This document shows, one piece after another, positions 102-48,180 of a stretch of 64,000 nt of DNA. The number at the start of each line of letters is the position of its first letter. The first letter of the stretch is position 1. The DNA is from an uncultured Verrucomicrobiota bacterium. GTDB lineage: Bacteria; Verrucomicrobiota; Kiritimatiellia; CAIVKH01. The translations under genes and the position numbers were made by a program. The DNA is taken from assembly GCA_964388845.1 (NCBI GenBank), contig CAYMCD010000004.1:452-64451 (forward strand). Direction: 5' to 3'. The notes under the pieces were generated by a model. The model searched no databases. It had not been told where the DNA came from and worked only from the letters and a program-made list of their open reading frames with translations.

Positions 102-150
102 TTACAGACGTTGGAACTCATGACGCGGTGTTATTACAGACGTTGGAAGT
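102..150 (+). repeat. Two direct copies of a conserved AT-rich ~20-bp element (core TTACAGACGTTGGAA at 102-116 and 135-149, 33-bp register) overlapping the 5' end of the giant gene
   Basis: Read directly: tttttACAGACGTTGGAAct (98-119) and atTACAGACGTTGGAAgttc (133-153). The same extended 18-20-mers recur three times at 24504-24566. The element is about 40% GC in a ~68% GC background. Copy 2 lies inside the predicted signal-peptide codons (YYRRWKF) if ATG-120 is the start. Confidence 0.75.
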
Positions 151-3100
151 TCTGCGCGGCGGCTGCCGCTCTCTGGTCGTACCTCTGGGTGACGGATGGG
201 CGAGCGGATGTCTACCTCGGGAAGGATGGCGGTCTCGAGGGCATCGCGACGGTGGACGACAGCACCACCTTCTCCACGGGCCAGTCGAACAAGTGGACCA
301 AGGACAACGCGACGATCACGATTTCGCAGGAAACCGTCAACATCCGGAGCGGCGCGAATGCGCTTCGTGTCCTCAATGCCAGCACGACGGGTCGCCGCAT
401 CCGTTCGCCCTTCAATTCGTTCGGATCCAAGACCACGGGGATCACGATCCAGTATTACCGGATGATCACCAACGTTTCGAATTCCGCCTCCAACCAGGAG
501 GGCGTCGTGCGGAGCTCCACGGAATCGCTCCAGGGCACCTACGACCGGCCTGCGAGCGCCAACAGTTGGGATAAGCAGACCTATTCCCCCGCGAGCGCCA
601 CGTTCACCAGTATCGTCGGAGTGATCCTGTCGCGCGGGCCCACGGCGTCGGGCGGGAACATCTACATTGACGACATGTGCATTTATGACGGTTCCGTTGA
701 CACGACGGCGCCGAACGCGCCGGGGTCCGTCGTGGTGGAGAACGCAACGACCACCTCGCTCGACATACGATGGGGCGCGGCCAGCGGAGGGGTGGACAGC
801 GGCGGTTACTTGGTCGTCCGATACACCGCGAGTCCCGCGGCCAGTGACGATCCGAACGCCAACGGCATTTATGCCAGCAACAACACGTTCACGGTGACGC
901 TGACCGGCACGGTCAGGTATCAGGGGACCGGCACCAACTTCACGGACACGGGTCTCGCGTCCAGCCAGGCCTACTATTACAAGGTCTACACCTACGACAA
1001 GGCCTACAACTATTCGTCCGAATCGTCGGGCAACGGCACGACCTTGTCGTCCTGCACCCCCGTCGGCGCGGTGACCTTTGTCCAGCAGACCAATTACTAC
1101 ACGAAGTACTCAAGCGGCGGCGATATTTTCAACGTGGATGCGGCTCGGATGGGCATGTGGGCCAATTCCGGGAGTGAGCAGGCGGTTGCGTGGCGCGCCT
1201 TCCGCACGGACGGCAGCGGGGGTGGAGAACTGCGCGAATTGCAGCCGGGCGACCGGTTCCGCGTAACGATCAACGGGCCCAACCCGAGCGGTCTGGTGGG
1301 CGTCTCCATCAACGACGGCGCGGCGACGGGATCCTGGGACAATCGAACCAACAATACGCGCGGGTTTATCCAGGTGCAGGGCGGCGGCGCGAACGATTAT
1401 TTCGTCACACACGGCGGCGGAACCCCGGCCTGGTCCGGGGTCAGGCCGAACAGCACGGATCAAACCCTGGTGTTCGACATCCTCTCCAGCGCCGAGTTCA
1501 CGGCGAATATCGAGGGCCAGACGGCCAAATATGACCTGTCCATGCTGAACGGTCCGGGCGACGGCGATCGAGTTGACGGTTTCTCGCTGTTCTTGAACAA
1601 CGACGCCGGGGATATCCACTGGAAGCAGACCACGATGGTCACCAACCTCGGCTACGTCGAGTTGGGCGCGGACAACGGCACGCGCAGCATCGCCGGCAAG
1701 ATCACCGACAGCACGGATCCGGCCTGCACGAACACGGCCGCGCCGAATCTGCTCCGGAAGACCGGAACCGGGACCGTCACCCTGCAGAATACGGCGAACA
1801 CCTACACGATGGGCACGCGGGTCGAGGCGGGCACGCTGGCCGTGTTCAACGACGGCAGCCTCGGCGCGGCGCCCGGCGGCGCGGTGGCGACGAACCTCAA
1901 TATCTGGAGCAGCGGGACCCTGCGGGCGACGAACAGTTTTACGATCAGCGCCAATCGCGGTATCGCCCTCGGCGACGTGAGCGGCCCGGGCATCGAGGTG
2001 GATTCCGGCAAGACGCTGACCTATGCCGGCGCGCTGGGCGGCAACGCGGAATGGAACAAGAAGGGCACGGGCACGCTGGCGCTGACCGGCACGTCGAGCA
2101 CCAACAACGGCAAGGTCGTCATCCAGGGCGGCACGTTGCAGCTCGCGGGCGACGGCAGCCTCGGCGCGGTCCCCGGCGCGGCGTCGGAGAAGATCAACAT
2201 CTGGAGTACGGGCACGCTGGAGGCCAACGCGACGTTCACGCTGAACGCGAACCGACGCATCGAACTCGGCGCCGTGGCCGGACCGAAGATCTCCGTGGCC
2301 GGCGGATATACGCTGACCTACGGCGGACAGATCAGCGGGTCGGCCAATTGGAGCAAGGAGAGCGCGGGCACGCTGGCGCTGACCGGGGCGGTCGGATCCG
2401 CCAGCGGCACGCTGGTGCTCAATGCCGGCACGGTGGCGTTCGACGGCACCAACACCTCGCAGGCCGTGGGCGTGACGGCGTCCGGTTTCCTCTACGGCAA
2501 CGGATCTATCGGCGCGCTGACGATCACCGGCCAGGTCAGCGCGGGCGGCGCGTCGAACACCGTGGGCAATCTCCGGACCACCAGTCTCAATCTCCAGGAC
2601 AACGGCCGGTTGCAGGTGAACTTTTCGGCGATGACCGGCACGGCGGGCACGGATTGGGATGTGATCACCGTCGGCGGCGGATCGGGCACCTACACGGTCA
2701 ACGCGGCTGACGGCTCGGACTTCGTCCTGGCGCTGAAAGGCAACCCGACGTTCAACAACGCGCTGGGCTACACCAACATCATCGCGGACGCCGGCACGGC
2801 GTCCGGCTTCGTCTCCAATAAATTCACCGTCAGCACCGACGAATTCACGCCCGGCCTCGGCGGCGGCGCCTTTGTCGTGGACGCGGCCGGCGGCGACCTG
2901 CGCTTGATCTTCATCCCGTCCGTGGTGGCCGAACCGGACATGGGCGTGCTGGGGACCAACGGCGCGGCCATTTCCAACGGCGATGTCGCGCCCTCGGCGG
3001 CGGACGGAACGGATTTCGGCCAGGTATATGTGTTGGGCGCACGGGCCGTCACAAACGTGTTTGCCATCACCAACGCCGGGACGGCGAATCTGACGCTGTC

Positions 3101-6100
3101 GTCCGTCAGCACCAGCAGCGCGATGGGCGCGGCCGCGGACTTCGCCGTCCTGTCCTGGCCGTCCACGATTTCGCCCGGCGCGAAATCGAACCTCGTCATC
3201 GCGTTCGACCCGTCGGACGTCGGCGTGCGCACGGCCCTCGTCAGCATCGCCAACAACGATACGAACAACAATCCCTACACCTTCGTCCTCGCGGGGGAGG
3301 GCACGGGCGCATATTCGGCCATCACGCTCCAGGGGTTCGAGGGGTCCGCCGCGGACACCTGGACCTACACCCGCGCCGCCGGCGCCGGGGATATCTATGT
3401 GGACGGCGACACAAACGCGGGCGGCGCGTATGCGCTGACCTTCCGCGGCTCGGCGAGCTCAAACTCCGATCCCTATCTCGAGTTCGACACGATTGATCTC
3501 TCCGGATACGGGTCGGTCACGCTGCGCGTGGCCTTCGCGGTCGCCGGCGCGGACAACGGTGACGACCTGGAGCTCGACCTGTCCTATGACGGCGGGACCA
3601 CCTGGAACGGGCCCGGCAGCACGACGCTGGTTTATGGGGCATCGAACACCAATCTCGGGTTTACGGGGACGGGCGCGTCCACCGTGCCGGCCAATCCGTG
3701 GACGGTCGCCCTGCCGTCCACCGCCCAGCAGGTCCGGGTCCGGATCCGCTTCGACGAATCGGCCAACGACAACACCTTCGATCGCTTCTTCGTGGACGAC
3801 ATCGAATTGTCGGGCATGGGCGCAGCGCCGACGGTGGCGCTGGGCGATGTGCTGTACAGCACGTCCGAAACCGACGCGACGGTCACCGTCCCCGTCAGCA
3901 TTTCCGCTTCCTTCTCCGCGACGGTGCAGGTGGCGCTGGCCGGTACGGCGACGGGCGGGGGAACGGACTATTCCGCCAACACCACGAACGTGATTTTCTC
4001 GGCGGGCGGGGCCACCACGTCGAACCTCGTGTTCACGCTCAACAATGACGGCGCCGCGGAGGGGCCGGAGGAAATCGGCGTCACGCTGGTCGCCGCGCGG
4101 GGCGCCAGGGTGGGCGGGCCGGCCGCCGCGACGGTCGTGATCCAGGATGACGACGCCATCACGATCATGTCCGCCAATCTCACGAGCGGAACGAACCTGG
4201 TGGACGGCACCTATTGGTACACCGAGACCAGCCAGCGCATCTTCAAACGCCTCCGGCCCGATGTGGTGGCGATCCAGGAATGGAAGTTCACGAATGCCGG
4301 CGCGCGCGCCTTCGTGGATGCCGTGTTCGGCACGAATTACTATTACTACATCGAGCCGGAGTCCGACCCGAATCCGATCCCCAACGGCGTGATCAGCCGG
4401 TGGCCCATCACGGCGTCGAACGAATGGACCGACACCTATGTCGGGGCGCGCGATCATGCGCAGGTGACGATTGATATCCCCGGGAACCGGGATCTCCACG
4501 TGGTCTCCACGCACTTCAAGGCCGGGCCGGGCGATGCCGCCACGCGCGAAAGCCAGGCCCGGGAACTGACTAACTACATCGCCGGCGCGGCATTTCCGAC
4601 CAATGATTACGTGGTGGTCGCGGGCGACCTGAACCTGACCAACCGGACGGAGACCACTTTCGTCGTGGTCACCAGCGTCGTCACCGACGCGCACCAACCG
4701 GCGGACCGGGACGGCGATCTGAACACGAACCTCGGCCGCTCGGCCCCGTACGACTTTGTGCTGCCCAACCATGTGCTGGACGCCGACCATCTGGCCGTCG
4801 CGGTGGCCGGCGTCTCGTTTGCGAACGGCGTGGTGTTCGATTCGCGCCAGTATAAAGATCATCTCACGCCCATCCTGGTCGAGGACTCCTACGAGGCGAA
4901 CCGCACGCACATGGCGGTCGTCAAGGTCTTCACGATTTCCACGTCGGCCGCGCCGCCGACCGTGACCACGACGATCGCCTCGGCGACCAACCAGACCACG
5001 GCCACGGCGGGCGGCAATGTCACGGACGACGGCGGCGCAAGCGTGACGAATCGCGGCGTGGTGTGGGCGCTGGATCCGGCGACGCCGACCGTGCCCGGCG
5101 CGCAGACGACGAACGGGACGGGCACGGGCAGCTACTCCTCGACGCTGACGAACCTGACGCCCGGCGCGACCTACAACTACCGCGCCTTCGCGCAGAATTC
5201 CGCGGGGACCGGCTACGGCGCGACCAACAGCCTGACGACGCCATGCTTCTCCGGAATCGTTACGGGGCTCGTCGCGAGCGCGACGAACGAGACCGACTTT
5301 ACCGCCGCGTGGAGCAATTTCGCCGGCGCGACGGGGTATTCGCTGGACGTGAGTACGAATGCCACCTTTGGCGGCGCGGGTAGCCCGGATCTGTTCTTCT
5401 CCGAATACGTCGAAGGGAGCAGCAACAACAAGTTCCTTGAAATCTACAACGGCACCGGCGCTTCGGTTGATCTGTCCAATTATAAGGTTCTGCATTTCAA
5501 CAACGGCGCCTCCACGCCGACCTACTCCCTGACCTTGAGCGGGACGCTGTCCGCCGGCGCGGTGTATGTGATCGAAAACAGCTCCGAGTCCCTGGGCGTG
5601 ACCGCGGATTTGTCCACTTCGTCGTCCGTCATGAACTTCAACGGCGACGACGCCATCGCCTTGACCAATACGCTGGCCGGCGGCTATGCGGATGTTATCG
5701 GCCAGATCGGAACCGATCCCGGAACCGAATGGGGGACGGGCAGTGCATCAACGGCGGACAACACCATCCGCCGCATGTCGTCGGTGACCGGCGGTGATAC
5801 CAACGGGGCGAACAGCTTCGATCCCGCGACGGAGTGGGACGGGTATGCCACGGATACTGTTTCCGGGCTGGGATCGCACACCGGGGGTGCATCACCCTCC
5901 TACGTACCCGGCTATTCCAATCGCACCGTTTCCGTGTCCGGCGCGTCCGTGACCGGATTGACCGGCGGCGCGACGTATTACTTCCGGGTGCGCGCGACGA
6001 ACGACTACTGCGCGACGGACAACTCGGCAACGCAGTCGGTGACGACGATTTCGTACGTCCCCGACGTCGCGGCGCTCGGGACGAACCTGGCGGCGATCGT

Positions 6101-9100
6101 CATCAGCAACACGGCGCCGGCGATCGCCAACGGCACGGACTTCGGCTCGATCGGGGTGAATCTGTCCAACCGGATGCACACCTTCACCATCACCAACAGC
6201 GGGACGGCCGCGCTGGGCGTGGGCACGGTGACGACCACCGGCACGCACGCGGCGGACTTCATCGTGGTCAGCCAGCCGGCGGCCTCCATCGCGGCGGGCG
6301 GCAGTTCAACTTTCCAGGTGCAGTTCGACCCAGGCGCGGCGGGGCAACGGGACGCAACGCTGACGTTCACGAACACGGTTTCCGGCAAGACGCCGTATCC
6401 GTTCGCGGCCCGCGGCACGGGTGTTCTGGCCGGAATCGGGTATGGCCCGGCCGCAACGAGCGTCACCGTGATGGTCGGCACGACGCCTTCCGCGGCGGCC
6501 TTCGGCGTGACGAACGTGGGACGCGGGCGCCTGGACTATGCGACATCCACGAACGCGGCCTGGCTGTCGGTGTCGCCGGTGTCGGCGAATCTCAATGAGG
6601 GCGGCGCCCAGGCCCACACGATCAGTTTCAACGTGACCGGTTTGAGCGCCGGGACGAGCAATGCGACGGTGACGATCACGGATGCCGGCGCCTCGAACAG
6701 CCCGCAGACGGTGGCGGTCACATTGATCCTGACGAATATCCCCAATCCGACGGCGGTGTCCGCGTGGGCGCACGGCCGCGAGTTGATCCGGCTCGGCTGG
6801 ACGCGTCCGACCGGGCTCGACGTGATGATCGTGTACCGCGAGACCAACGCGCCCAGCGTGCCCGCGCAGGGGCAGGGCTACAGCATCGGCGATACCTACG
6901 GCGGCGACGGGTCGCGCGTGATCTACAAGGGCAGCGCGGCCCAGTTGGAGCACGTCGTGTTGCCGGGCCGGACCAACCACTACGCGCTCCACGCCATCAA
7001 CAACGACCACTACTCGCCCGGCGTGGCGACGAATATCGCGACGACCGCGTACCCCGCGTCCGAGATCGTCGAGCCGTTCGCCTACACGAATACGGGCACG
7101 CTCGCGACGGGCGGGCACGGCGGCGGCGGGAACGGGTGGACCAACAGCTGGCAGTACGATACCGGAAACTTCAACATCAGCAGCGGCAATTTCGCGAACA
7201 TCTCGGTCTATCCCACGAATGCGGCGAACCGGGTCCGGATCAACAGCGCGGACATTGACGGCACGTCCAAGGCCGCGCGCCGCCACTTCGCGGCCTATAC
7301 GACGGGCAAGGTCTACGCCGCCTACATGCTCAATTACGCCTACAACGGGGCGAACAAATTCGCCGGCCTGTCGTTCATGGACGGCACGAACGAAATGATG
7401 TACTACGGCGAGGATTACAACAGCGACCAGAAGCTGGCCGTCGGCTCCTCCTCCACCGCGACCAACATCTACGCCGGCGTCGGCAACGACTACCTCATTG
7501 TCGGCCTGTACGACTTCACCGCCGACACGGGGTATGGGCTGGTGTACAAGATCGGCACGGACTCGGTTCCCGCGAGCGAGCCGTCCGTGTGGCACGGCTC
7601 GCATTCCAACAACGCGATCGCGCGGATTGACGGCATCCGCATCGCGGCGGGCGCGGGGGGCGGGTCCGGCACGCCGGGCGACACCTATTTCGACGAAATC
7701 CGCGTGGCGACGAGCTGGGAACTGCTGCTGGCCAATTACGCGCAGCCGGAAATAGCGGCGCTCGGCACGAACCTCGCCGTCCTCACGACGGCCAACACGC
7801 CGGATTACGCGAACGGGTCCGATTTCGGGGCGACCGCGGTGACGGGCGGCCAGGTGGACCGCACGTTGTTCATCACGAATTCGGACGCGGGCGCGCTGAA
7901 TGTGTCCGGCCTCTCGACGTCCGGCGCGCAGGCGGCCGACTTCATCGTCGTGTCCTGGCCGGCAAAGGTTTCGCCCGGCGCGGTGTCGAATCTCGTGTTG
8001 CGGTTCGATCCTTTCGCGTCGGGTGTCCGCACCGGCGCGATCACAATTGCCAGCGACGACGCCGACGAGGGCAGCTATGTCTTCCACGTCCGCGGCACGG
8101 GGCAGGTCCCGCCGACCGTCGCCACGACAATCGCCTCCGCGACGAACCAGACCTCCGCGACCGCGGGCGGCAACGTGACCGACGACGGCTACGCGCCGGT
8201 GACGAACCGCGGTGTCGTCTGGAGCGCATCGGCCGGCCCAACCGTGCCGGGCGCGCAGACGACGAACGGGACGGGCACGGGCAGCTACTCCTCGACGCTG
8301 ACGAACCTGACGCCCGGCGCGCCGTACTATTACCGCGCCTTCGCCCAGAACTCCGCGGGCACCGGCTATGGGACGGAATACACATTGACCACCCTCTGCT
8401 TCAGCGGCCTGGTCACCGGCCACTACGTCAGCGCGACCAATGACGTGAACTTCACGGTCGTGTGGAGCAACTTTGCCGACGCCTCGGGCTATGCCCTCGA
8501 CGTATCCAGCAACGCGGGCTTTGCGGTCAACAGCGGCGGCTCCGTCTATACGAACACCTGGGAGGGCGCGTCCAAAGGCGCCTACGCCTCCGGCACGGTC
8601 GTGATCGCCGGGATCACCTGGTGGATGGACGACGCGCTGATCGGCACCAGCGCCAGCGACCGCAAGAACGGGTCCAACGCGGCGCGTGTCCAGAATTCCG
8701 GCGTCATCGGGATGCAGACATCCACCAACATGGGCTTGAGCTCCATCACCCTCCTCCATGGCGTGTATGGATCGGACGGCAACTCCGATGGGCGCGTGGA
8801 GTATTCGACGGATGGCTGGGCCACCTGGTCCACCGCGGGCACGTTCACGGCGACGTCCACCTCCCTGACCGCGTTTGAGGCGACGAACCTGAACGTCAGC
8901 GGCAGCGTGGCGGTGCGCATCGTCAAGACCTCGGGCGGCGGCGACCGCTACAACCTGGACGACATCCTGCTCCATCCGTACAGCCAGGCGCCCTCGTTCG
9001 TGCCCGGCTATTCCAACCGCGCGGTATCCGGAACGAGCGCCTCGGTGACGGGATTGGTGTCCGGCGCGACCTACTACTACCGCATCCGCGCCACGAACGC

Positions 9101-12100
9101 CTATTGCGCGACCGAGAATTCCACGACGGGCTCGGTCACGACTGTCGTTCTGGCCGCCTCGATTGATATCCTGGGCAACGGGGCGCTGATTGTGGATGGC
9201 GACGCGACGCCGTCGCCGACCGACCACACGGACTTCGGCGGGGTGGGGCTGGTGAATTCGAACCTTGTGCGGACCTTCACGATCACGAACGCCGGGCCGG
9301 GCGCGCTCTCCGTATACGGGGTCAGCACCAGTGGCGCGGCGGCAGCCGATTTCATCGTGATTGCGCCGCCCGGCACGCCGGTGAGCGCGGACGCGACCAC
9401 CACGTTCCAGGTCCGTTTCAACCCGACCGCGCTCGGCACGCGCACGGCGACGCTGGCCGTGTCGAACAATGTGACGGGCAAGACGCTGTATGACTTCGTG
9501 GTCCAGGGCACGGGCGTCGCGGCCTCGCTGGTCGTCGCCCCGTCCAGCCTCTCGGTGACCTCGGTGCTGGGCTCGGCGCCGGCCGGCCTCGGGTTCGGTG
9601 TGACGAACAGCGGGCGCGGGGACCTGGTGTACGGCGTGGCCACCAACGTCAACTGGCTCTCCGTCAGCCCGAATGCGGCGACCAACGCCGAGACGGAAGG
9701 GCGCCAGCACACGTTGACCTTCACCGCGCCCGGTTTGCACGCCGGGGTGTCGAATGCGACCATTACGGTCACCGACACGAACGCCGTGGGCAGCCCGCAG
9801 GTGGTGGCCGTTGAATGGACCCTGACGGCCATACCGCCCGTCCTGTCGGCCGGCGTGACGAACGACGGCAACGAACTGGTTCGGATCGGCTGGACGAAGG
9901 ACTCCGGCTACGACGTGATGATCGTGCACAATCGCACCAACCCGCCCTCCGCGCCGGCGAACGGCACGTCCTACAGCGTGGGCGGGGCCGTGGGTTCCGA
10001 CGGTTCGCGCGTGATTTACAGCGGCGGAGGCGCGGAGCTGCAGCACGTCGTGGCGCCCGGCAGCGACAACTACTACGCCTTCTATTCGGTGAACAACAAT
10101 CACTACTCGACGCCTTTGTCCACCAACACGACGACGGGCGCCTATGCCGCCGGCGAAATCGTCGAGCCGTTTGCCTACACCAGCGGCGTGACCATGATCT
10201 CGCGCCAGGGCGGAAACGGCTGGGGGGCCAACTTCTGGACCGGCGACACCAACGCCTTCTCCGTCAGCAATTTGAGCTTCGCCGCGCAGACGAACTATCC
10301 GACCCCGCGCGCGAACAAGCTCGCGGTCACGCCCCAGGATGGCGGCAGCAACACGATCCGTCGCCAGTTCACCAACACCTATGCGAGCGGGCGGCTTTAC
10401 GTCGGGTATATCGTCAACTTCCAGTACAGCGGCGCCGACAAGTACGCCGGACTGTCCCTGATGTCCAACACCACCGAGCGCCTGTTCGTGGGCGAGGTTT
10501 CCACCGCCGACCTGCGGCTCGGCCTCGACGGCAGCTCGTCGAATCGCGTCCTCAACAACGGGGCGGGCAACGATTACATCGTGGTGATGCGCTACGACTG
10601 GAGTTCCGGCCTCGCGGCGGCCAGCGCGTACAAGGTCGGCACGGATGCCGTGCCCGACAGCGAGCCGACCGCGTGGGACATGATGTTGAGCAAGGCGAGC
10701 AATGCCGTCGGGCGGATCAACGGGCTCCGGCTCGTGGCGGGCACGACGGGGTCCGGCACGCCGGGGACGACGTATTTCGACGAGATCCGCGTGGCGACCA
10801 ACTGGAGCGAGTTGATCCAGATGCTGCCCAGCCGGGTCATCTATGACGGCTTCGCATCCTCCAGCGGCGCGCTTTCCGGGGGCGGCGGCGGGACGGGCTG
10901 GTCCGACACGTGGGCGATCGGCGGCGATCCCTTTGCGGACTACACAGCCACCTCGTTCGGGATCGAGAAGTCCAGCTATTACCAGCCGACCGGGAACAAG
11001 ATCGTCCTGTATGGCGATGTGAACGGGCGCTGGATCACGGCCAGCCGGACCTTCCTGGAGCCGTTCACAAACGGCGCCGTCTATTTCTCCTGGATGATGA
11101 ACTACGAGTTCAACGGCACGGACAAATACGCGGGGCTCAAGCTGCTCGATGGCGGTTCCGAGAAGGCCTTCGTCGGCAAGGTGTCGGGCGCGGACAAGGC
11201 CCTCGGCATTGATTCCAGTTCGAGCAACCAGACCTCCACCAACGACATCGAAAACGCTTCGGGCAACGATTACGTCGTCGTCGCGAAATACGACTTCGCG
11301 ACCCGCGTGCTCAGCGCGACGACGTACCGCACGATAACCAACGCGGTCGCGGAGGAACCCAACGGCTACTGGCTGGTCACCACGACGCAGGGCGTCGGGC
11401 ACATCACCAGCTTGACGGGCGTCCGCCTCTCCATCGGCGCCGGCGCGAGCGTGCAGGTGGGCGATGTTTATTACGACGAAGTCCGCGTGGGCACCAACTG
11501 GTTCGAGGTCACCCGCAAGGACGGCGAGGCCCAGGCCCCGGCGATGGCGAACGGACCGACGCCGCGCCTGCTGTACGTCGGCACGAACTACAATCCGGCG
11601 CTCAACCCGCAGGGCATCCTGAACGACATCACCGTCACGGACGCGGACCTGATCAACACCGCCGATCCGCTGGATATCGCGATCCTGTGGAGCAACTCGT
11701 ACGGCGTGTTCATGACCAACGCGAGCCCGGCGATCAAGAACATCAGCTCCCGCCTGGGCCGCGTGACGCCGAACTACGATCCGGTCGTGCTGACCGGGAG
11801 TCAATTCCAGTCCACCGGCGCGGACGCCTCGTTCACCAATTTCGCGGGCAACAACGGCTCAACGGTGGTGACGACCTACCAGCACCGGGCGTTCAACATC
11901 ACCAACTCCACGTACGACGACGCGTACTACATCACCGTCAGCGCGGAGAACAACAACCTGGGCGGCGGGACGTTTGCCGCGCCGAACGCGGGCGACGCGA
12001 TCCCGTACTGGCGCGCGCTCACCGTGAACACCGCGCTGCAGTTCTACGTCCAGGACGACGACATCAGCTATCCGGAATTGCTCGAATTCACGATAGACGG

Positions 12101-15100
12101 GGTGGGCGGCTCGGGCGTCTCGAACCTGTCCGCCGGCGGGATCGCGGTCATCGGCGTGAACGGCACCGCGACGGGCGATCTGGAGCGGTTCTCCTTTGTC
12201 GTGCTGGCGCCGTTCCCCGCCGGCACCGTGATTGAGTTCACGGACTGCGGCTGGGATCCGACCGACCTGAGCGGCACGGGCGACTGGCACCGGGTCACGG
12301 AATTTCACACGAACAAATGGGTCGCCACCGGCAATATTGACGTCGGACGCGTGATCGAGCTGACCCTGAACGACATCAACAACGGCGGCGACCAGGTGAC
12401 GATTTTCCAATATTACGGGGCCACCACGGCGTCGAACGATTCCGAAAACGTGAATTTCGTCTACGCCGTGAACCTGGGTCCGCGCTGGTACGATCCGCCG
12501 GGCGATCCCATCCCCGACGACAACCAAAGCTCCGCCCTCTACCGCGGGTTGACCAACGGCACGACGGCCGTCAGCGTGCCGCTGGACTACGGCGTGGCCA
12601 ACGCCCGCTACATCGGCCCAATGACCGGCACCGCCTCCTACCTGCTGCTCCAGATCAGCGACTCGAACAACTGGGAATCGCTCGCGACCGGCTACCACGA
12701 CATCACGAATTACAGCTTCGAGGTGACCGGCGCGGGCGCCTTCGATTGGAACACGCCGGAGCTGTCCGACGCGCAGGTGCTGGCGGGCGGCTTCATGGTG
12801 ACCAACATCCTGCGCGACCTCGACAGCGGCGTGCTGGCCTCCAACACCTCGTTCGGGCACGCCCCGTATTTCATGCTGTTCAACACAAACGACCAGGTCG
12901 TGGTCTCGAACCTCTTCGTCGTGAGTTTCACGAACGGGACGAGGACGGTCATCACCAACGCGAACAACACCTTCTCCGGACAGTACGATCGCATCACGAT
13001 CGGGATGGGCGAGGCCCTGGTCGCCTGGTCCGACGCGGACGGCGATCGTTCCCTGGACACCTTGATGACAACGAGCCGCGTGCCCGTGCTCATCTTCGAC
13101 GACGACCCGGACGAACCCGTCGCCGGGGCCATGACCCTGTTGAACGGGTCGAACACCGTCACTGAGCAGGCGGGACCGGTCCAGCTGCTTGCGGCGTGGA
13201 ATTTCAACGCCAGCAACACCACGGCCACGTCCGGTTCCGGCACGTGGAGCGACAACCTGCTGACCGCGCCGACCTACGGAAATGCGGGAACCACCATCAA
13301 CGCCGTCTCCGGCGATACGGCGGGCGCCGACATCACGATCACCGCCGGAAGCGGACTGCAGAACAACGGCCGCTACATCCAGTTCCTGCTCAACATGTCC
13401 GGCAGCGAAGGCCTCGTGATGACGTACTCCGCGCGCCGGTCCGGGACCGGCTTCACCACCAACCTGGTCGCCTATTCGACCGACGGGGTGTCGTTCACGC
13501 CGTTCGCGACGAATACGCCGACCCAGGACAGCCACGCCCTGCGTTCCAACGACTTCGGCGCTGTGACCGCGCTGGACGACCAGGGCGCGGTATACATCCG
13601 CATCACGCTGGACGGCGCCACCGCCACCGCGGGCAACAACCGGTTCGACAATTTCCAGTTCAACGCGTTGCGACGGGTCTTCACCCTCACGGACGGCGCG
13701 CTCGCCCTCGTGGCCTCCACCAATCCGCTCTCGTTCAGCTTCAGCGTCTACGACGAGACCAGCGGCGTGGCGCGCGGAACGTCGTCCGACGGGACCAACA
13801 TGAATGTTTCAATTCCCGGCATGGCGACAAACAACACCACGAATTATGCCGCGTCCGCCAGCAGCGCCGGTACGCTCGCGCCCTCGTCCACCAGCCTGTG
13901 GCAGTTCACCTCCTTCACGTACGCGCAGATCGGCGATCTCTATGGAGGCGGGACGAACCTGATCCCCGTCACGGCGAATATCAGCGATCTCGACAACGAT
14001 CGCCTGGACGATCGCCTGCAGCTCACGAACCGTTCGTACGGCACCTTCTTTGTGACCGATGACGACACCAACACGCCGGTTGTCGCGAATGTAAACCTGT
14101 CCGGCGCGTCCGCCGCGCCGTTCGTGGTCGCCACGAACGGCGTCGCGCCGACGAATCTGATCCGCAATTTCATCGCGCGGCGGACCGGCTCGGGAACGGA
14201 CACCCTGACGACCGTCACGGACCAGGAGCTGGCCGATGCGACCAACATCCAGTTCCAGTTCGTCTTCGGCGTCCGCGACGCCCATTCCGGCGTTTCCCGC
14301 GGGGTCTCGGGGACGACCAACGAGGTGATGAGCTTCAGTCTGGGCACCAATATCACGGGCAATTTCACGGACTACAGCGCCGCGCTCTCCACGCCGCAGG
14401 CCACGACCAATCTCCTCCTCACGAACTACTGGACCTTCGGCAATTTCGACAGCGCCGCGATCAATGCCCTGATGGCCTCCACCGGAAATCCCGTACACAT
14501 CACCATGCCCGACCTCGACGACGACCGTCCGTCCGACCGGGCCACCGACTACAGCCGCCTGGTCGGCTACGTGCGCGTCGTGGACGACGACATCCGCGGG
14601 CCGATCATCAATTCGGCGGATATCGCGGGCGCCTACGGAACAAATGTGACGATGTATTCCAGTTTCGAGACCAACCAGAACTGGCCCGCGTCCTCGCTCG
14701 GCAGCGGGACGCCGTGGACCAACGATGCCACGACGGGCCGGTGGATCGCGGATGGGGCGACGTTTGGCGCGCTGGACCCCAAGATCTCCGGCACGCGTCG
14801 CATCGGCCTGCTCACCAATTCGCTCGCGGAGCCGCGTTGGATCCAGCTTCCGCCCATCGCCGATCCCGGCACGCTCGTGCTGTTCGCGGGCCGGTTCAGC
14901 GGAAACGATGTCACCCTGCGGGTCGAACGCGCGGACGGCGCCAGCTGGATCAGCGTCGGCAGCCGGGTCGTCACCAACCTGAATCCGGAATTCGAGCTGT
15001 TCTCCTGGGATATCAACGTCACCGGCGTGACGACGCTCCGCGTCGTGCACGCGGGGACCGGTCCGCAGGTCTACATGGACGATATCAGCGTCTACCCGCA

Positions 15101-16910
15101 GGCCATCTGGATCAGCACGAATTCGCTTACCATGAGCTGGGAGGAGGCGCTGGACGACTTCTCCACGGTCGCCGAATACCGGGTCGTGGCGCCGGCCCAG
15201 TCCGCGGCGCAGCCCGCGACGACCAACGACGGGACGGGGTTGTCCGCCTCGGTGCGGACGAACTCCTTCAATATCACGGGGCAGCAGGGCGTGTTGACGG
15301 GGTATCTCTTCGCCGTGGACAACGACGCGGACCGGGGCCACGACCAGGCCATCGGGAATTTGCAGAAACTCGTGGTCCGCGTGGACACCAATCCGCCGCC
15401 GGTTCCCACCGCGCTGCGCGCGACGGATGCCGCGGCCGGGTATCTCTTCGGCAGCATTGACGAATCGTCCGAGATCCTCGTCCAGTGGACTCCGCCGGGG
15501 ACGAACGCGTCGCAGTCGGCCGGGTGGCGGCAGTCGGACAGCGAGGCGCTGTCGCCGTGGGAGACCTACATCATCACGTATTATGAGGTGGTGGACACCA
15601 ACGGCACGCCGGCCGCGAACGCGGTCACGCAGGTCCTCACGCGGGCGACCGCAGGCTGGTCGAACGCATTGTCCAGCTACGCATTCACCAACCTGTTGCT
15701 CTCCAACCTGACGTTCGATTCCTACTACAAGATCACCGTCCAGGGCCGGGACGAGGCCGGGAATATCGGCCTGTCCACCAGTGTCGTGGGCAACACGGAT
15801 CGCTTTGTGGTCACACAGGGGCTCGCCCGGGCGAACATGGGCCTTTCCGTCCGGTGGACCGGCCCCACGAACGAGACGACCTATCGCGATTACGATGTCA
15901 TTTTCGTGGACAGTTCGGTCGGCTTCCACGCCTCGCTGACGAACAGCTGGGACTGGCTGACCTACACCAACCGGCCGCGGCTGGAGGACTACGGGGGAAC
16001 CAACCGCGTCGCGCCGGGTTGGCTGACGGGCACAACGTACCGGATGTACCGCGTGGCGCGGGAGGATCGCTGGCGGACCAACCAATCGCCGCGCCTGGCC
16101 AGCGTCGAAATCTACGCGGCCAAGGCCCTGCGCCTGCATCCGGGCGAGAACTGGTATTCACTGTTCTCCTGGCCCGACCCCGCGACGACCAATGAGCAGG
16201 AAAGCACCGTCGCCTACGTGTTCGGCACCAACACGCTGCACGCGAGCAACACCTATGCGCAGTCCACGCGCATTTCCTGGTTCGGCGCCACCACCGGCGC
16301 GACCAATATCGGGACGGTGGCCACCTCGATCGTCTGGCTGTCTTCGTCGGCGGGCTGGCAATACGCGCTCGGGGGATCCGGCGCGGCGAATGAGAAGCGC
16401 GTGCCGCTGGGGCAGGGGTTCATGATCGAGGTGCCGACCAATGCCGCGGCGACCAACCTGGTGCTGATCGGGCGGCTGCCGACGCAGTCGCTGTCGCGCG
16501 TGATCTCAGCGCCGGTTTCCACCAACATCCCGGAGTTCCATGTGCTGAGCCACCAGATGCCGGAACGCATCACGGTGTCGAACTTCGTCAGCCAGTTCAG
16601 CGGCTTCGGCGCCGGGCCGTTCGCGAACTACGCGGACGAGATTCGCATACTCGACAACAGCCAGACCAATGGCGTAGCGATGGGTTCGCTGCGCTCGCCG
16701 CGGATGCGCATCTGGTACAGTTCGATCGCCGCGCATTCGAACGCCCCGTGGCGGCGCGCGACAACAGGATCGCCGGCAAATAATCCGTCGGCGATGGGCG
16801 AGATTATCGAGCCGGACGACGCCATCATCATCGTCCGCCGCAAGTCGGGAACCGTGACGTTCGTCAACACGCCCACGTATCCGCCGCCGACCCGGAACAT
16901 CACGCCATGA
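120..16910 (+). CDS. Giant secreted multidomain protein (about 5600 aa): PATR repeats, MAM-like modules, Calx-beta, EEP domain, LTD, FN3/Ig-like modules
   Basis: ORF 78-16910 is uninterrupted. ATG-120 gives a textbook signal peptide (MTRCYYRRWKF-CAAAAALWSYLWV-TDGRA); GTG-189 is an alternative start. Domains recognised by eye: FN3-like (~700-1020); PATR repeats GTGTLALTG/GTLxAxxxFT (~1750-2800); MAM-like modules (FEG..W..SYDGGTTW..FFVDDIELS; ~3300-3820 and ~8520-8990); Calx-beta-like ending ATVVIQDDDAITI (~3840-4150); EEP domain (~4150-4935; VVAIQEW, SRWPI, HVVSTHF, VVAGDLN, YDFVLPN); LTD (~5388-5690; LFFSEYVEGSSNNKFLEIYNGTG...DDAIAL); and three ~225-aa tandem modules ending YFDEIRVAT(S/N)W. 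No PEP-CTERM, LPXTG or TM anchor at the C-terminus. Confidence 0.9.
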   Translation: MTRCYYRRWKFCAAAAALWSYLWVTDGRADVYLGKDGGLEGIATVDDSTTFSTGQSNKWTKDNATITISQETVNIRSGANALRVLNASTTGRRIRSPFNSFGSKTTGITIQYYRMITNVSNSASNQEGVVRSSTESLQGTYDRPASANSWDKQTYSPASATFTSIVGVILSRGPTASGGNIYIDDMCIYDGSVDTTAPNAPGSVVVENATTTSLDIRWGAASGGVDSGGYLVVRYTASPAASDDPNANGIYASNNTFTVTLTGTVRYQGTGTNFTDTGLASSQAYYYKVYTYDKAYNYSSESSGNGTTLSSCTPVGAVTFVQQTNYYTKYSSGGDIFNVDAARMGMWANSGSEQAVAWRAFRTDGSGGGELRELQPGDRFRVTINGPNPSGLVGVSINDGAATGSWDNRTNNTRGFIQVQGGGANDYFVTHGGGTPAWSGVRPNSTDQTLVFDILSSAEFTANIEGQTAKYDLSMLNGPGDGDRVDGFSLFLNNDAGDIHWKQTTMVTNLGYVELGADNGTRSIAGKITDSTDPACTNTAAPNLLRKTGTGTVTLQNTANTYTMGTRVEAGTLAVFNDGSLGAAPGGAVATNLNIWSSGTLRATNSFTISANRGIALGDVSGPGIEVDSGKTLTYAGALGGNAEWNKKGTGTLALTGTSSTNNGKVVIQGGTLQLAGDGSLGAVPGAASEKINIWSTGTLEANATFTLNANRRIELGAVAGPKISVAGGYTLTYGGQISGSANWSKESAGTLALTGAVGSASGTLVLNAGTVAFDGTNTSQAVGVTASGFLYGNGSIGALTITGQVSAGGASNTVGNLRTTSLNLQDNGRLQVNFSAMTGTAGTDWDVITVGGGSGTYTVNAADGSDFVLALKGNPTFNNALGYTNIIADAGTASGFVSNKFTVSTDEFTPGLGGGAFVVDAAGGDLRLIFIPSVVAEPDMGVLGTNGAAISNGDVAPSAADGTDFGQVYVLGARAVTNVFAITNAGTANLTLSSVSTSSAMGAAADFAVLSWPSTISPGAKSNLVIAFDPSDVGVRTALVSIANNDTNNNPYTFVLAGEGTGAYSAITLQGFEGSAADTWTYTRAAGAGDIYVDGDTNAGGAYALTFRGSASSNSDPYLEFDTIDLSGYGSVTLRVAFAVAGADNGDDLELDLSYDGGTTWNGPGSTTLVYGASNTNLGFTGTGASTVPANPWTVALPSTAQQVRVRIRFDESANDNTFDRFFVDDIELSGMGAAPTVALGDVLYSTSETDATVTVPVSISASFSATVQVALAGTATGGGTDYSANTTNVIFSAGGATTSNLVFTLNNDGAAEGPEEIGVTLVAARGARVGGPAAATVVIQDDDAITIMSANLTSGTNLVDGTYWYTETSQRIFKRLRPDVVAIQEWKFTNAGARAFVDAVFGTNYYYYIEPESDPNPIPNGVISRWPITASNEWTDTYVGARDHAQVTIDIPGNRDLHVVSTHFKAGPGDAATRESQARELTNYIAGAAFPTNDYVVVAGDLNLTNRTETTFVVVTSVVTDAHQPADRDGDLNTNLGRSAPYDFVLPNHVLDADHLAVAVAGVSFANGVVFDSRQYKDHLTPILVEDSYEANRTHMAVVKVFTISTSAAPPTVTTTIASATNQTTATAGGNVTDDGGASVTNRGVVWALDPATPTVPGAQTTNGTGTGSYSSTLTNLTPGATYNYRAFAQNSAGTGYGATNSLTTPCFSGIVTGLVASATNETDFTAAWSNFAGATGYSLDVSTNATFGGAGSPDLFFSEYVEGSSNNKFLEIYNGTGASVDLSNYKVLHFNNGASTPTYSLTLSGTLSAGAVYVIENSSESLGVTADLSTSSSVMNFNGDDAIALTNTLAGGYADVIGQIGTDPGTEWGTGSASTADNTIRRMSSVTGGDTNGANSFDPATEWDGYATDTVSGLGSHTGGASPSYVPGYSNRTVSVSGASVTGLTGGATYYFRVRATNDYCATDNSATQSVTTISYVPDVAALGTNLAAIVISNTAPAIANGTDFGSIGVNLSNRMHTFTITNSGTAALGVGTVTTTGTHAADFIVVSQPAASIAAGGSSTFQVQFDPGAAGQRDATLTFTNTVSGKTPYPFAARGTGVLAGIGYGPAATSVTVMVGTTPSAAAFGVTNVGRGRLDYATSTNAAWLSVSPVSANLNEGGAQAHTISFNVTGLSAGTSNATVTITDAGASNSPQTVAVTLILTNIPNPTAVSAWAHGRELIRLGWTRPTGLDVMIVYRETNAPSVPAQGQGYSIGDTYGGDGSRVIYKGSAAQLEHVVLPGRTNHYALHAINNDHYSPGVATNIATTAYPASEIVEPFAYTNTGTLATGGHGGGGNGWTNSWQYDTGNFNISSGNFANISVYPTNAANRVRINSADIDGTSKAARRHFAAYTTGKVYAAYMLNYAYNGANKFAGLSFMDGTNEMMYYGEDYNSDQKLAVGSSSTATNIYAGVGNDYLIVGLYDFTADTGYGLVYKIGTDSVPASEPSVWHGSHSNNAIARIDGIRIAAGAGGGSGTPGDTYFDEIRVATSWELLLANYAQPEIAALGTNLAVLTTANTPDYANGSDFGATAVTGGQVDRTLFITNSDAGALNVSGLSTSGAQAADFIVVSWPAKVSPGAVSNLVLRFDPFASGVRTGAITIASDDADEGSYVFHVRGTGQVPPTVATTIASATNQTSATAGGNVTDDGYAPVTNRGVVWSASAGPTVPGAQTTNGTGTGSYSSTLTNLTPGAPYYYRAFAQNSAGTGYGTEYTLTTLCFSGLVTGHYVSATNDVNFTVVWSNFADASGYALDVSSNAGFAVNSGGSVYTNTWEGASKGAYASGTVVIAGITWWMDDALIGTSASDRKNGSNAARVQNSGVIGMQTSTNMGLSSITLLHGVYGSDGNSDGRVEYSTDGWATWSTAGTFTATSTSLTAFEATNLNVSGSVAVRIVKTSGGGDRYNLDDILLHPYSQAPSFVPGYSNRAVSGTSASVTGLVSGATYYYRIRATNAYCATENSTTGSVTTVVLAASIDILGNGALIVDGDATPSPTDHTDFGGVGLVNSNLVRTFTITNAGPGALSVYGVSTSGAAAADFIVIAPPGTPVSADATTTFQVRFNPTALGTRTATLAVSNNVTGKTLYDFVVQGTGVAASLVVAPSSLSVTSVLGSAPAGLGFGVTNSGRGDLVYGVATNVNWLSVSPNAATNAETEGRQHTLTFTAPGLHAGVSNATITVTDTNAVGSPQVVAVEWTLTAIPPVLSAGVTNDGNELVRIGWTKDSGYDVMIVHNRTNPPSAPANGTSYSVGGAVGSDGSRVIYSGGGAELQHVVAPGSDNYYAFYSVNNNHYSTPLSTNTTTGAYAAGEIVEPFAYTSGVTMISRQGGNGWGANFWTGDTNAFSVSNLSFAAQTNYPTPRANKLAVTPQDGGSNTIRRQFTNTYASGRLYVGYIVNFQYSGADKYAGLSLMSNTTERLFVGEVSTADLRLGLDGSSSNRVLNNGAGNDYIVVMRYDWSSGLAAASAYKVGTDAVPDSEPTAWDMMLSKASNAVGRINGLRLVAGTTGSGTPGTTYFDEIRVATNWSELIQMLPSRVIYDGFASSSGALSGGGGGTGWSDTWAIGGDPFADYTATSFGIEKSSYYQPTGNKIVLYGDVNGRWITASRTFLEPFTNGAVYFSWMMNYEFNGTDKYAGLKLLDGGSEKAFVGKVSGADKALGIDSSSSNQTSTNDIENASGNDYVVVAKYDFATRVLSATTYRTITNAVAEEPNGYWLVTTTQGVGHITSLTGVRLSIGAGASVQVGDVYYDEVRVGTNWFEVTRKDGEAQAPAMANGPTPRLLYVGTNYNPALNPQGILNDITVTDADLINTADPLDIAILWSNSYGVFMTNASPAIKNISSRLGRVTPNYDPVVLTGSQFQSTGADASFTNFAGNNGSTVVTTYQHRAFNITNSTYDDAYYITVSAENNNLGGGTFAAPNAGDAIPYWRALTVNTALQFYVQDDDISYPELLEFTIDGVGGSGVSNLSAGGIAVIGVNGTATGDLERFSFVVLAPFPAGTVIEFTDCGWDPTDLSGTGDWHRVTEFHTNKWVATGNIDVGRVIELTLNDINNGGDQVTIFQYYGATTASNDSENVNFVYAVNLGPRWYDPPGDPIPDDNQSSALYRGLTNGTTAVSVPLDYGVANARYIGPMTGTASYLLLQISDSNNWESLATGYHDITNYSFEVTGAGAFDWNTPELSDAQVLAGGFMVTNILRDLDSGVLASNTSFGHAPYFMLFNTNDQVVVSNLFVVSFTNGTRTVITNANNTFSGQYDRITIGMGEALVAWSDADGDRSLDTLMTTSRVPVLIFDDDPDEPVAGAMTLLNGSNTVTEQAGPVQLLAAWNFNASNTTATSGSGTWSDNLLTAPTYGNAGTTINAVSGDTAGADITITAGSGLQNNGRYIQFLLNMSGSEGLVMTYSARRSGTGFTTNLVAYSTDGVSFTPFATNTPTQDSHALRSNDFGAVTALDDQGAVYIRITLDGATATAGNNRFDNFQFNALRRVFTLTDGALALVASTNPLSFSFSVYDETSGVARGTSSDGTNMNVSIPGMATNNTTNYAASASSAGTLAPSSTSLWQFTSFTYAQIGDLYGGGTNLIPVTANISDLDNDRLDDRLQLTNRSYGTFFVTDDDTNTPVVANVNLSGASAAPFVVATNGVAPTNLIRNFIARRTGSGTDTLTTVTDQELADATNIQFQFVFGVRDAHSGVSRGVSGTTNEVMSFSLGTNITGNFTDYSAALSTPQATTNLLLTNYWTFGNFDSAAINALMASTGNPVHITMPDLDDDRPSDRATDYSRLVGYVRVVDDDIRGPIINSADIAGAYGTNVTMYSSFETNQNWPASSLGSGTPWTNDATTGRWIADGATFGALDPKISGTRRIGLLTNSLAEPRWIQLPPIADPGTLVLFAGRFSGNDVTLRVERADGASWISVGSRVVTNLNPEFELFSWDINVTGVTTLRVVHAGTGPQVYMDDISVYPQAIWISTNSLTMSWEEALDDFSTVAEYRVVAPAQSAAQPATTNDGTGLSASVRTNSFNITGQQGVLTGYLFAVDNDADRGHDQAIGNLQKLVVRVDTNPPPVPTALRATDAAAGYLFGSIDESSEILVQWTPPGTNASQSAGWRQSDSEALSPWETYIITYYEVVDTNGTPAANAVTQVLTRATAGWSNALSSYAFTNLLLSNLTFDSYYKITVQGRDEAGNIGLSTSVVGNTDRFVVTQGLARANMGLSVRWTGPTNETTYRDYDVIFVDSSVGFHASLTNSWDWLTYTNRPRLEDYGGTNRVAPGWLTGTTYRMYRVAREDRWRTNQSPRLASVEIYAAKALRLHPGENWYSLFSWPDPATTNEQESTVAYVFGTNTLHASNTYAQSTRISWFGATTGATNIGTVATSIVWLSSSAGWQYALGGSGAANEKRVPLGQGFMIEVPTNAAATNLVLIGRLPTQSLSRVISAPVSTNIPEFHVLSHQMPERITVSNFVSQFSGFGAGPFANYADEIRILDNSQTNGVAMGSLRSPRMRIWYSSIAAHSNAPWRRATTGSPANNPSAMGEIIEPDDAIIIVRRKSGTVTFVNTPTYPPPTRNITP
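4930..10815 (+). repeat. Intragenic segmental duplication: unit A ~4930-7740 is repeated as unit B ~8100-10815, offset ~3.1-3.2 kb
   Basis: Protein level: PPTVTTTIASATNQTTATAGGNVTDDG...AFAQNSAGTGYG (4930-5350) versus PPTVATTIASATNQTSATAGGNVTDDG...AFAQNSAGTGYG (8100-8520); PSYVPGYSNRTVSVSGASVTGL... (5880-) versus PSFVPGYSNRAVSGTSASVTGL... (8995-); EIVEPFAYTNTG... (7060-7735) versus EIVEPFAYTSGV... (10156-10820). A stretch of more than 60 nt is identical at 5102-5170 and 8258-8326 (cgcagacgacgaacgggacgggcacgggcagctactcctcgacgctgacgaacctgacgcccggcgcg). Unit A carries the LTD (5388-5690); unit B has a MAM-like insert at that position (8520-8990). Confidence 0.85.
10156..11510 (+). repeat. Tandem pair of ~675-nt modules (10156-10820 and 10836-11510), homologous to 7060-7735; each encodes a ~225-aa domain starting NGW and ending YFDE(I/V)RV(A/G)T(N/S)W
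   Basis: Three aligned protein segments read from the ORF: GGHGGGGNGWTNSWQYDTGNFNISSGNF...; QGGNGWGANFWTGDTNAFSVSNLSF...; GGGGTGWSDTWAIGGDPFADYTATSFGI.... All share the internal motif NG(A/T)(N/D)K(F/Y)AGL(S/K)(F/L)(M/L)D. Confidence 0.8.
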
Positions 16911-17776
16911 AAACGATCCGACAGCACACCCCCGGGATGCGGATGGCCGCCATCGCCGCGCTGGCGGCGGGCGCGTGGGCCCTGTCGGCGCGCGCCCAGC
17001 ACGCCCCGCTCGCCTACGAAAACAGCGCGCCGGTCGTCAATGAATTCGGCCAGCCCCTGTCCGGGACGGCCGCCGGCGGCGCGCGGGTCGAAATACTTTC
17101 GGCCCCGATCGGCGTGTACGCCCCGGCGATGGACGGCCAGCCGCACCCGAGCAATACGGTGCTCGCGGTTGCGCACATCGGCGCGGGGGCGGACCCCGGC
17201 CCGGGGGCATCAGGCCTCGTCTCCGGCGCCATCCTGCTGGACCGCACAAAGGCCACGAAGCTGTTCGCGCGCGTCTTTAATCGCGAGACGCGGGAGCTCT
17301 CGTCGTTCTACGGCGATAGCGCGGTCTACACCAATCCGACCGCGGTGTACGGCGTGTTCTCCTTCGAGGTCTCGGCCGCCCAGCAGCCGCTCGATCCGGG
17401 CGATGGCGACGCGGACGGGTTGAATAATTCGTGGGAAAAGAGCCTCGGTTCCAATCCGAACCTCGACGATACGGATGAGGACGGTGTATCCGACGGACAC
17501 GAGTTTCGCGCGGGCACGGAACTCCTGGACGACCAGTCCTTCCTCGCCATGATCCGCGTGCTCCCCTCCGCGGGGGGACACCTCCGCGTCGAGTGGGACA
17601 GCGTGGCCGGCAAGTCCTACCAGTTGCAGTACGCGCCCTCTGAAATGCTGGACGACAGCCTGGTCTTCAGCAACGTGAACGCCGCCGTCACGGCCGCGGA
17701 TGCCTCCGCGCATACGATCGTCACCAACGGCGCAAGCCTGCCGGCGGGCGTGTTTCGGGTACACCTGGTCGAATAA
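16907..17776 (+). CDS. Secreted protein (289 aa) with acidic thrombospondin-type-3-like Ca-binding repeats and a conserved C-terminal beta module
   Basis: ATGA start/stop overlap with the giant gene (16907-16910). Signal peptide MKTIRQHTPGMRMAAIAALAAGAWALSARAQ. Repeats DPGDGDADGLNNSWE...NPNLDDTDEDGVSDGHEF. The C-terminal ~80 aa (..GGHLRVEWDSVAGKSYQLQYAPS...GVFRVHLVE) align with the C-terminus of the second giant protein (62160-62495). Confidence 0.75.
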   Translation: MKTIRQHTPGMRMAAIAALAAGAWALSARAQHAPLAYENSAPVVNEFGQPLSGTAAGGARVEILSAPIGVYAPAMDGQPHPSNTVLAVAHIGAGADPGPGASGLVSGAILLDRTKATKLFARVFNRETRELSSFYGDSAVYTNPTAVYGVFSFEVSAAQQPLDPGDGDADGLNNSWEKSLGSNPNLDDTDEDGVSDGHEFRAGTELLDDQSFLAMIRVLPSAGGHLRVEWDSVAGKSYQLQYAPSEMLDDSLVFSNVNAAVTAADASAHTIVTNGASLPAGVFRVHLVE

Positions 17777-48145: not shown

Positions 48146-48180
48146 CCCCCACCGGCGCCGGTGTATTATATCCGCTGGAC

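Follow-up and report, generated by a model that had tools for sequence, protein, structure and literature searches.

A widespread C-terminal module of TSP3 repeat and FN3-like beta domain, shared by two otherwise unrelated secreted proteins of an uncultured Kiritimatiellia bacterium

The surface retention of giant adhesins and secreted enzymes in Kiritimatiellia, Verrucomicrobiota, and their relatives is poorly understood. A 64,000-nucleotide stretch of DNA (the window) from an uncultured Verrucomicrobiota bacterium of the class Kiritimatiellia (contig CAYMCD010000004.1) raises the question in a concrete form. Two genes of the window encode secreted proteins that end alike, in an acidic repeat followed by a small beta domain. 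The first-pass annotation of this DNA called such an ending the hallmark of a dedicated sorting system. Are the two tails truly related, what are they made of, and what may they do?

The first carrier is a small secreted protein of 289 aa, encoded by an open reading frame (ORF) at 16907..17776 on the plus strand, whose sequence ends ..PAGVFRVHLVE. The second is giant protein 2 (1851 aa; ORF 56940..62495, plus strand), which ends ..APIRIYRVRVRAP. Both tails exist in these ORFs exactly as first quoted. Each carrier begins, on a reading of its sequence, with a Sec-type signal sequence that has no lipobox Cys. The predicted signal peptide of the small protein is MKTIRQHTPGMRMAAIAALAAGAWALSARA (16907..16996, plus strand), with an inferred cleavage site before QH, and the AlphaFold model (predicted local distance difference test, pLDDT, 92.2; predicted template modelling score, pTM, 0.82) has a helix at residues 10-23 of this region. 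A family-specific N-terminal beta-sandwich follows at aa 35-153 (17009..17365, plus strand; strands from the model). This sandwich has no Pfam or NCBIfam match, and a Foldseek search of the Protein Data Bank (PDB) with the whole small protein returned nothing at E<=1e-3. The interval that was first flagged, 17380-17776, is the 3' third of the small gene and covers two TSP3 repeats and the beta domain. Giant protein 2 starts with the signal peptide, continues with choice-of-anchor J, DUF11, four Calx-beta domains, and Exo_endo_phos (all by Pfam and NCBIfam), and closes with the C-terminal module. Its choice-of-anchor J domain (NCBIfam NF038128, residues 41-200) scores 33.7 bits against a cut-off of 30. 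This family is named for the company of varied C-terminal anchors.

The two tails are homologous and are copies of one widespread module. Direct BLASTP shows little similarity. The one aligned segment is 38 residues long, with E 2e-4 when tail is compared with tail and 0.011 when the full-length proteins are compared, so the two proteins are otherwise unrelated. A hidden Markov model (HMM) of the tails of 118 small-protein homologs matches the giant-2 tail at E 2.7e-9, colinear to the final residue. A six-tail seed, both window tails included, was used for a profile search that retrieved 487 further proteins, and a second HMM, limited to the beta domain, was made from 109 metagenomic sequences among them, with both window sequences excluded. 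Against 743 six-frame pieces of the window, this leave-out HMM matches only the two tails (giant 2, 45.2 bits, E 3e-14; small protein, 45.5 bits, E 1.4e-13; next best, E 0.78), although its metagenomic sequences were fetched by a seed alignment containing both tails. Profile positions 1-74 of 75 are covered in both. A 12-sequence beta-only profile of giant-2-like tails also matches the small protein of the window (E 1.4e-3), together with 70 of the 118 family members at E<1e-3. Since beta-only profiles link the tails, the homology rests on more than the acidic repeat. As a lone query in a word-index search, the giant-2 tail found one protein only.

Chance, or GC-rich composition, is the other way in which two tails could come to resemble each other, and the pairwise BLASTP result taken alone would allow it. 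The probability of this explanation is negligible: it is already refuted by the tail-family HMM, the leave-out HMM, and the 12-sequence profile, the second of which separates the two tails from the rest of the window by many orders of magnitude. The alignments run end to end, the AlphaFold models of both tails have the same fold, and hundreds of intermediate sequences lie between them. The original description therefore stands: two secreted proteins with no relationship elsewhere have one colinear module at their C-termini. Its list of conserved columns is right about the colinear spacing and needs one change. For the listed GT, only the T is conserved, and giant 2 has ADT.

Judged from its sequence, the acidic repeat belongs to the bacterial TSP3 family (Pfam PF18884, TSP3_bac), whose repeats are of the calcium-binding type. 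An acidic repeat had been described for both tails, and it is found in both, but in different numbers. The small protein contains two, DPGDGDADGLNNSWEKSLGSNPN (17393..17461, plus strand) and LDDTDEDGVSDGHEFRAGTELLDDQ (17462..17536, plus strand), and the latter directly abuts the beta domain. PF18884 matches the small protein with 28.5 bits (cut-off 25) in two stretches, and its tail alone with 31.2 bits. Residues D166, D168, D170, G171, W176, and E177 of repeat 1 vary little or not at all in the family; D188, D190, D192, G193, E199, and T204 are conserved in repeat 2. Giant 2 has a single TSP3-like repeat (KDADEDGMAAWEEYLADTNPTNSQ), which stands behind the W-containing motif HFWLAAYGL (motif and repeat together, 62142..62270, plus strand). 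PF18884 does not match the giant-2 tail at E<=1; in the module alignment, KDADEDGMAAWEEY nonetheless falls in the TSP3 columns. Across the module, the TSP3 pattern is DxDxDGxxxxxE[FY]xAGT[DN]P, in one or two repeats.

Members of PF18884 share the acidic DxDxDGxxDxxE repeat with the module, and many module-bearing matches carry PF18884. What sets the module apart is that a single repeat is fused in fixed register to strand A of the beta domain (..AGT[DN]PxxxxS-strand A), with no long array, and that repeat and beta domain are modelled with high confidence as one unit. The giant-2 tail also reaches 23.7 bits against NCBIfam NF042425 (Amuc_1099_fam; positions 108-153 of 321), below the cut-off of 50, and the small protein has no match to this model. 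This weak, partial match suggests that a WL..YG plus TSP3 motif is common to the giant-2 tail and the Amuc_1099 family, which belongs to an Akkermansia pilus-like gene cluster. A third DxDxDG match of the window is located at 55124 on the minus strand, in a region with two ORFs of ~830 aa each (54186-56684 and 51576-54056, both minus strand). We take this match to be the TOPRIM motif of GyrB and the two ORFs to be probably gyrB and gyrA, unrelated to the module.

The second part of the module is a beta domain of ~75 aa. It is made up of aa 211-289 in the small protein (17537..17773, plus strand; leave-out HMM, and DSSP on the model) and of aa 1778-1851 in giant 2 (62271..62492, plus strand; leave-out HMM), where it ends ..IRIYRVRVRAP. 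The AlphaFold model of the 101-aa giant-2 tail has a pLDDT of 94.8. In both models, DSSP assigns strands A, B, C, E, and F and two short bridges. The strands of the small protein are A 215-221, B 225-231, C 237-244, E 267-272, and F 281-288, with no G, and the protein stops 4 residues past FRV. Between the F-strand motif [FY]YR[VI] and the end of a carrier lie 3-5 residues; the last residue is Pro in about half of the carriers, and the ending follows the pattern [FY]YR[VI]x[LV]x[PEQ]-end. The Arg of this last strand is nearly invariant.

Library models do not recognize the domain: Pfam and NCBIfam give nothing in this region of either tail, and Pfam fn3 finds 0 of 82 representative domains at E<=1. 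An 82-sequence beta profile searched against the PDB matches 3mpc_A, an 'Fn3-like protein' of Clostridium thermocellum (E 4.4e-5), and 5g56 (E 6.5e-4). The 3mpc alignment comprises residues 13-74 of 103, that is strands A-F only, and the query ends there. Foldseek agrees on the FN3 fold class, with no significant match. An FN3-type beta-sandwich fold and a sequence relationship to FN3 are thus both found, and the set of seven strands that includes G is not. Sequence and model together indicate that the domain appears to be a divergent FN3-like sandwich without a G strand. The strand is apparently lost, because the 3mpc alignment stops at F and the proteins end 3-5 aa after the motif.

Bacterial FN3 domains (3mpc; PF00041) have the same A-F sandwich, with Trp in B, Tyr in C, and Tyr-x-Val in F. 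Both kinds of domain are extracellular and occur in tandem arrays. They differ in that Pfam fn3 is blind to the module domain and in the seeming absence of its G strand. Linkers within arrays are 4-10 aa in the module, compared with ~17-23 extra residues in canonical arrays. Ordinary FN3 domains are found anywhere in a protein, whereas the module domain is almost exclusively terminal.

How common is the domain, and where in proteins does it stand? When 1.84 billion cluster representatives (clustered at 50% identity) were searched exhaustively with the HMM, 57,857 proteins passed E<=1e-3 and 6,945 of them passed E<=1e-10, the former count being inflated since the profile also recognizes ordinary seven-strand FN3 arrays. 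The HMM search that had been proposed for further members thus yields thousands of matches, and they are not limited to internal positions. Source labels of carriers are metagenome-assembled genomes (MAGs) of Kiritimatiellia/-ae, Pontiellaceae, Verrucomicrobiota, and Lentisphaerota. Cargo proteins are very diverse. They include Calx-beta plus EEP nuclease/phosphatase proteins, GSDH plus cytochrome c, 3-keto-disaccharide hydrolase, and YD/RHS proteins, as well as PKD, Ig, and cadherin arrays, NosD-like beta-helix proteins, and proprotein-convertase P-domain proteins. Two carriers in 64 kb, and seven outside the small-protein family in 865 kb of related loci, extrapolate roughly to what are probably tens of carriers per genome.

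The best 150 matches of the exhaustive search fall into three groups. The first is composed of 76 proteins (median 557 aa, median 3.5 copies) in which copies are <=10 aa apart, joined by Pro-rich linkers too short to hold a G strand. The array reaches to within 6 aa of the C-terminus in 73 of these proteins. The second is made up of ~45 very large proteins with ~17-23 extra residues per copy, corresponding to the G strand, and mostly internal arrays. In the third, a few proteins repeat the whole TSP3 plus beta unit and end with that unit. Among the proteins P0241-P0389, short-linker arrays of up to ~12 copies with PxxPP-type linkers form the ends of Ig-, cadherin-, and protease-containing proteins, and every copy ends RFYRVxLxP. 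Tandem arrays range overall from 2 to 12 copies. The question raised at first, whether such tails are always C-terminal, has a largely positive answer, with 112 of 120 TSP3-linked modules ending <=10 aa from the C-terminus, as do the great majority of the short-linker arrays, but some copies are internal. Carriers outside the small-protein family in the 865 kb of related loci, which were not chosen by copy number, end with the domain in 6 of 7 cases, and all 7, including the internal copy, have a TSP3-like motif immediately before it.

This pattern can be read in a plain way. The domain may be an ordinary structural FN3-type domain that serves as spacer, solubility cap, or stabilizer and has no part in targeting or binding. 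Its C-terminal bias would then come from the mode of spread, appending to a 3' end being the easiest gene fusion. Sequence and fold within the FN3 superfamily agree with this, as do the canonical FN3 arrays that the same profile detects inside very large proteins, the tandem arrays with Pro-rich linkers that resemble other extracellular stalks, the conservation of mostly core residues, and the lack of associated machinery in the window. A terminal spacer, however, spaces nothing. The short-linker arrays are terminal in 96% of cases, and a hydrophobic C-terminal segment follows in 0 of 76, so the domain is not a spacer ahead of a membrane anchor. The apparent loss of the G strand and the nearly invariant Arg in the last strand are also atypical of generic FN3 spacers. 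The structural explanation is a serious one but on balance doubtful.

One enzyme family gives a closer view of the terminal position. Upstream of the small protein, and translationally coupled with it, is giant protein 1 (5610 aa; ORF 78..16910, plus strand), which shares with giant 2 a core of ~530 aa that is 43-45% identical (E 2e-77, 9e-36), includes the Exo_endo_phos domain, and lies at ~3390-4937 in giant 1 and ~59990-61880 in giant 2. By sequence comparison, the two giants are partial paralogs, and only giant 2 bears the module. A metagenome scan with this EEP core gave 80 loci (L058-L137), of which 64 have an ORF with its stop codon on the contig. Among these 64, the truncated FN3-like domain is the ending in 48 by HMM and in 4 more at a relaxed threshold. 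The others end in (I/V)PE(P/A) with a hydrophobic helix and an Arg tail (4), stop directly after the enzyme domain (5), or have another ending (3). EEP-core homologs are therefore strongly coupled to the domain, which ends 52 of the 64 complete ORFs. A DxDxD[GN] motif stands just upstream in only 6 of the 48 HMM-detected carriers, which makes the beta domain the constant part and TSP3 the optional one. For a structural role, it is a further difficulty that the domain comes last in 52 of 64 members of a single enzyme family, while others have a transmembrane-type tail there. Diverse cargo, together with a PEP-CTERM-like tail at the same position in some homologs, fits an anchor or sorting slot.

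Does the module then belong to a known sorting or docking system? Neither tail matches a known sorting-domain model of Pfam or NCBIfam at E<=1. The C-terminal domain (CTD) of the type IX secretion system (T9SS) is likewise a small beta-sandwich that forms the very end of many diverse proteins with Sec signals. No match to the T9SS CTD models (TIGR04183 / PF18962) was found at E<=1 for the two tails (Pfam, NCBIfam) or for 82 domains (Pfam), and CTD structures are not among the top structural matches of the module domain. The CTD is a single terminal copy, whereas the module domain occurs in arrays of several copies. The CTD is a feature of Bacteroidota, and the module is found in lineages of the Planctomycetes-Verrucomicrobia-Chlamydiae (PVC) type. 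The window shows no T9SS genes. Cleaved sorting tags are not known to occur as multi-copy or internal domains.

Dockerins (PF00404) share with the module a calcium-binding-type DxDxDG loop and a location at the C-terminus of diverse secreted enzymes. Their docking on a surface scaffold is non-covalent, and the working model for the module borrows this role by analogy only. Pfam gives no dockerin match at E<=1. A dockerin is a duplicated, helical F-hand, whereas the module is TSP3 plus beta-sandwich, and no cohesin-like partner was identified. PEP-CTERM (TIGR02595) was said from the start not to fit, correctly: the model matches neither tail, and the tails have no PEP motif, hydrophobic helix, or basic cluster, with maximal 17-residue hydropathy of 1.0 and 0.05. 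Three links to PEP-CTERM exist all the same: the two exosortase genes that lie between the carriers, the PEP-CTERM-like tails in the same C-terminal slot of some homologs, and the PEP-CTERM-like proteins encoded beside the small-protein gene in 13 loci. In the searchable literature on TSP3, PF18884, Kiritimatiellia, Verrucomicrobia, and Amuc_1099, no description of the module was found. One preprint does no more than mention TSP3 repeats for giant proteins of Omnitrophota.

The proposal of a true C-terminal sorting signal, read by a dedicated system for outer-membrane translocation or covalent attachment in the manner of the T9SS CTD, was the original interpretation of the shared tails. It draws on the extreme C-terminal position on very diverse cargo, a beta-sandwich of about CTD size, the PEP-CTERM-like tails that substitute in some homologs, choice-of-anchor J in giant 2, and the likely number of carriers per genome. 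A divergent FN3 fold in arrays of 2-12 copies, occasionally internal, is hard to reconcile with it, as is the failure of every known sorting-domain model. No candidate machinery was found; the only nearby enzymes of this kind are exosortases, and the tails lack their PEP-CTERM signal. In the small-protein family, moreover, the module is built into a conserved protein of three domains. We consider a dedicated sorting system improbable here.

The explanation that we prefer, still tentatively, is that the module is a terminal, non-covalent retention or docking module. A stalk that ends the chain with nothing beyond it is most simply the functional end itself, which favors this role. Further support is drawn from the diverse cargo, the endings of the EEP-core homologs, choice-of-anchor J in giant 2, and the genomic setting, in which the small gene is coupled to a giant PATR protein or has a PEP-CTERM-like neighbor and the two window carriers stand on either side of an exosortase and glycosyltransferase locus. 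After Sec export, the module would hold its protein on a ligand of the cell surface or matrix, which could be polysaccharide of the cell itself or a receptor protein. Calcium would stabilize or stiffen the module where TSP3 is present. The small protein, with its N-terminal beta-sandwich, two TSP3 repeats, and beta domain, could be a separately encoded adaptor for giant 1, an adhesin-like protein that has no module of its own and with which it would be co-translated.

Several points weigh against retention or docking. Function is read from architecture alone. The conserved Trp (B), Tyr (C), and Tyr plus Val (F) are the usual FN3 core, with no obvious binding site. The profile also detects ordinary seven-strand FN3 arrays, and the truncated form may be a minor structural variant. 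TSP3 is absent from most copies of the beta domain, being present in 31 of 956 copies and in 6 of 48 EEP-core carriers, so calcium dependence cannot be general. Internal copies exist too, one in L010 and the others as first copies of P0331, P0335, and P0369. The PEP-CTERM-like tails on which the slot argument draws score below the TIGR02595 cut-off. Finally, the samples are biased: the 487-protein retrieval contains only sequences of <=224 aa, apparently fragments and uninformative on full architecture, and the best 150 exhaustive matches are the highest-scoring, multi-copy proteins.

A bolder version gives the missing strand a purpose. The truncated domain would be a PVC-specific surface-display tag whose G strand is supplied in trans, and so part of a new sorting or assembly system. 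The donor could be a surface receptor, the next subunit, or the conserved C-terminus of a partner such as giant 1. Such completion would be comparable to the donor-strand complementation of chaperone-usher pili. The domain would then do the work of a PEP-CTERM or T9SS-CTD tag, with the 289-aa protein as a trans-acting adaptor. This version is a long shot.

The ATG of the small gene overlaps the TGA of giant 1 (ATGA, 16907-16910). The closest relatives (loci L001-L009 and L041) have the same 4-nt overlap with a giant PATR/BACON_2 protein of 2,700-5,600 aa, and more distant family members do not. Homologs of giant 1 have PATR, BACON_2, and fn3 matches. Giant 1 itself is without the module and has a conserved C-terminus. 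This giant 1-type C-terminus of ~110 aa (~16580-16907 in the window; also L001, L003, L007, L008, and L041) is strongly conserved, ends ..IIEPDDAIIIVRR..(T/V)(F/W)TN.PTY.PPTRNxxP, and is unlike the FN3-like module. It is a candidate contact for the small protein.

The small-protein family has 118 full-length homologs of 265-330 aa, with several paralogs per MAG. An exact look-up of the window's own small protein returned no record. The idea that the family always stands behind a giant protein was rejected, being true of the closest relatives only. In 13 more distant loci (L010, L011, L013, L014, L018, L020-L022, L029, L035, L039, L040, and L045), the neighbor of the small gene is a protein of ~205-340 aa that ends in ..NFVVIPEP, a hydrophobic helix, and a Lys/Arg cluster. 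Two such neighbor tails reach at best 13.9 bits against the TIGR02595 cut-off of 16, and these proteins are therefore called PEP-CTERM-like only.

The region of the small gene also contains reading frames that are less credible. The window has a GC content of ~66%, and GC at third codon positions (GC3) is 0.86 in the coding frame of the small gene. Antisense ORFs across 17210-18624 failed the codon-position GC test and were judged spurious. Directly downstream of the small gene, a 300-aa ORF (17846-18748, plus strand) that is perhaps no genuine gene has no Pfam match and does not pass the codon-position GC filter.

Between the two carrier genes lies a polysaccharide (exopolysaccharide, EPS) locus at 24585-51495. 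It contains two exosortase EpsH genes (29147-30127, minus strand; 47974-49146, plus strand), an EpsI/DUF3485 gene (28386-29264), and a sugar transferase gene (Bac_transf, 26964-28373). Epimerases and at least five glycosyltransferase genes are also part of this locus. A regex scan of the window found no PEP-CTERM-like ORF.

The building blocks of the module are of known kinds, a TSP3 repeat and a member of the FN3 superfamily. New are the terminal FN3 variant without a G strand, its fixed fusion to TSP3 in this lineage, and the uncatalogued scale on which it occurs. The module is abundant and is not covered by the Pfam and NCBIfam libraries searched. Interest would be high only if a partner or dedicated machinery emerges. 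If the domain is just a structural FN3 variant, its recognition would improve the annotation of thousands of 'hypothetical' C-termini. If retention or docking proves true, a new domain family entry would be justified, and the module would provide a tag for display engineering and a handle for predicting the surface proteome of polysaccharide-degrading bacteria.

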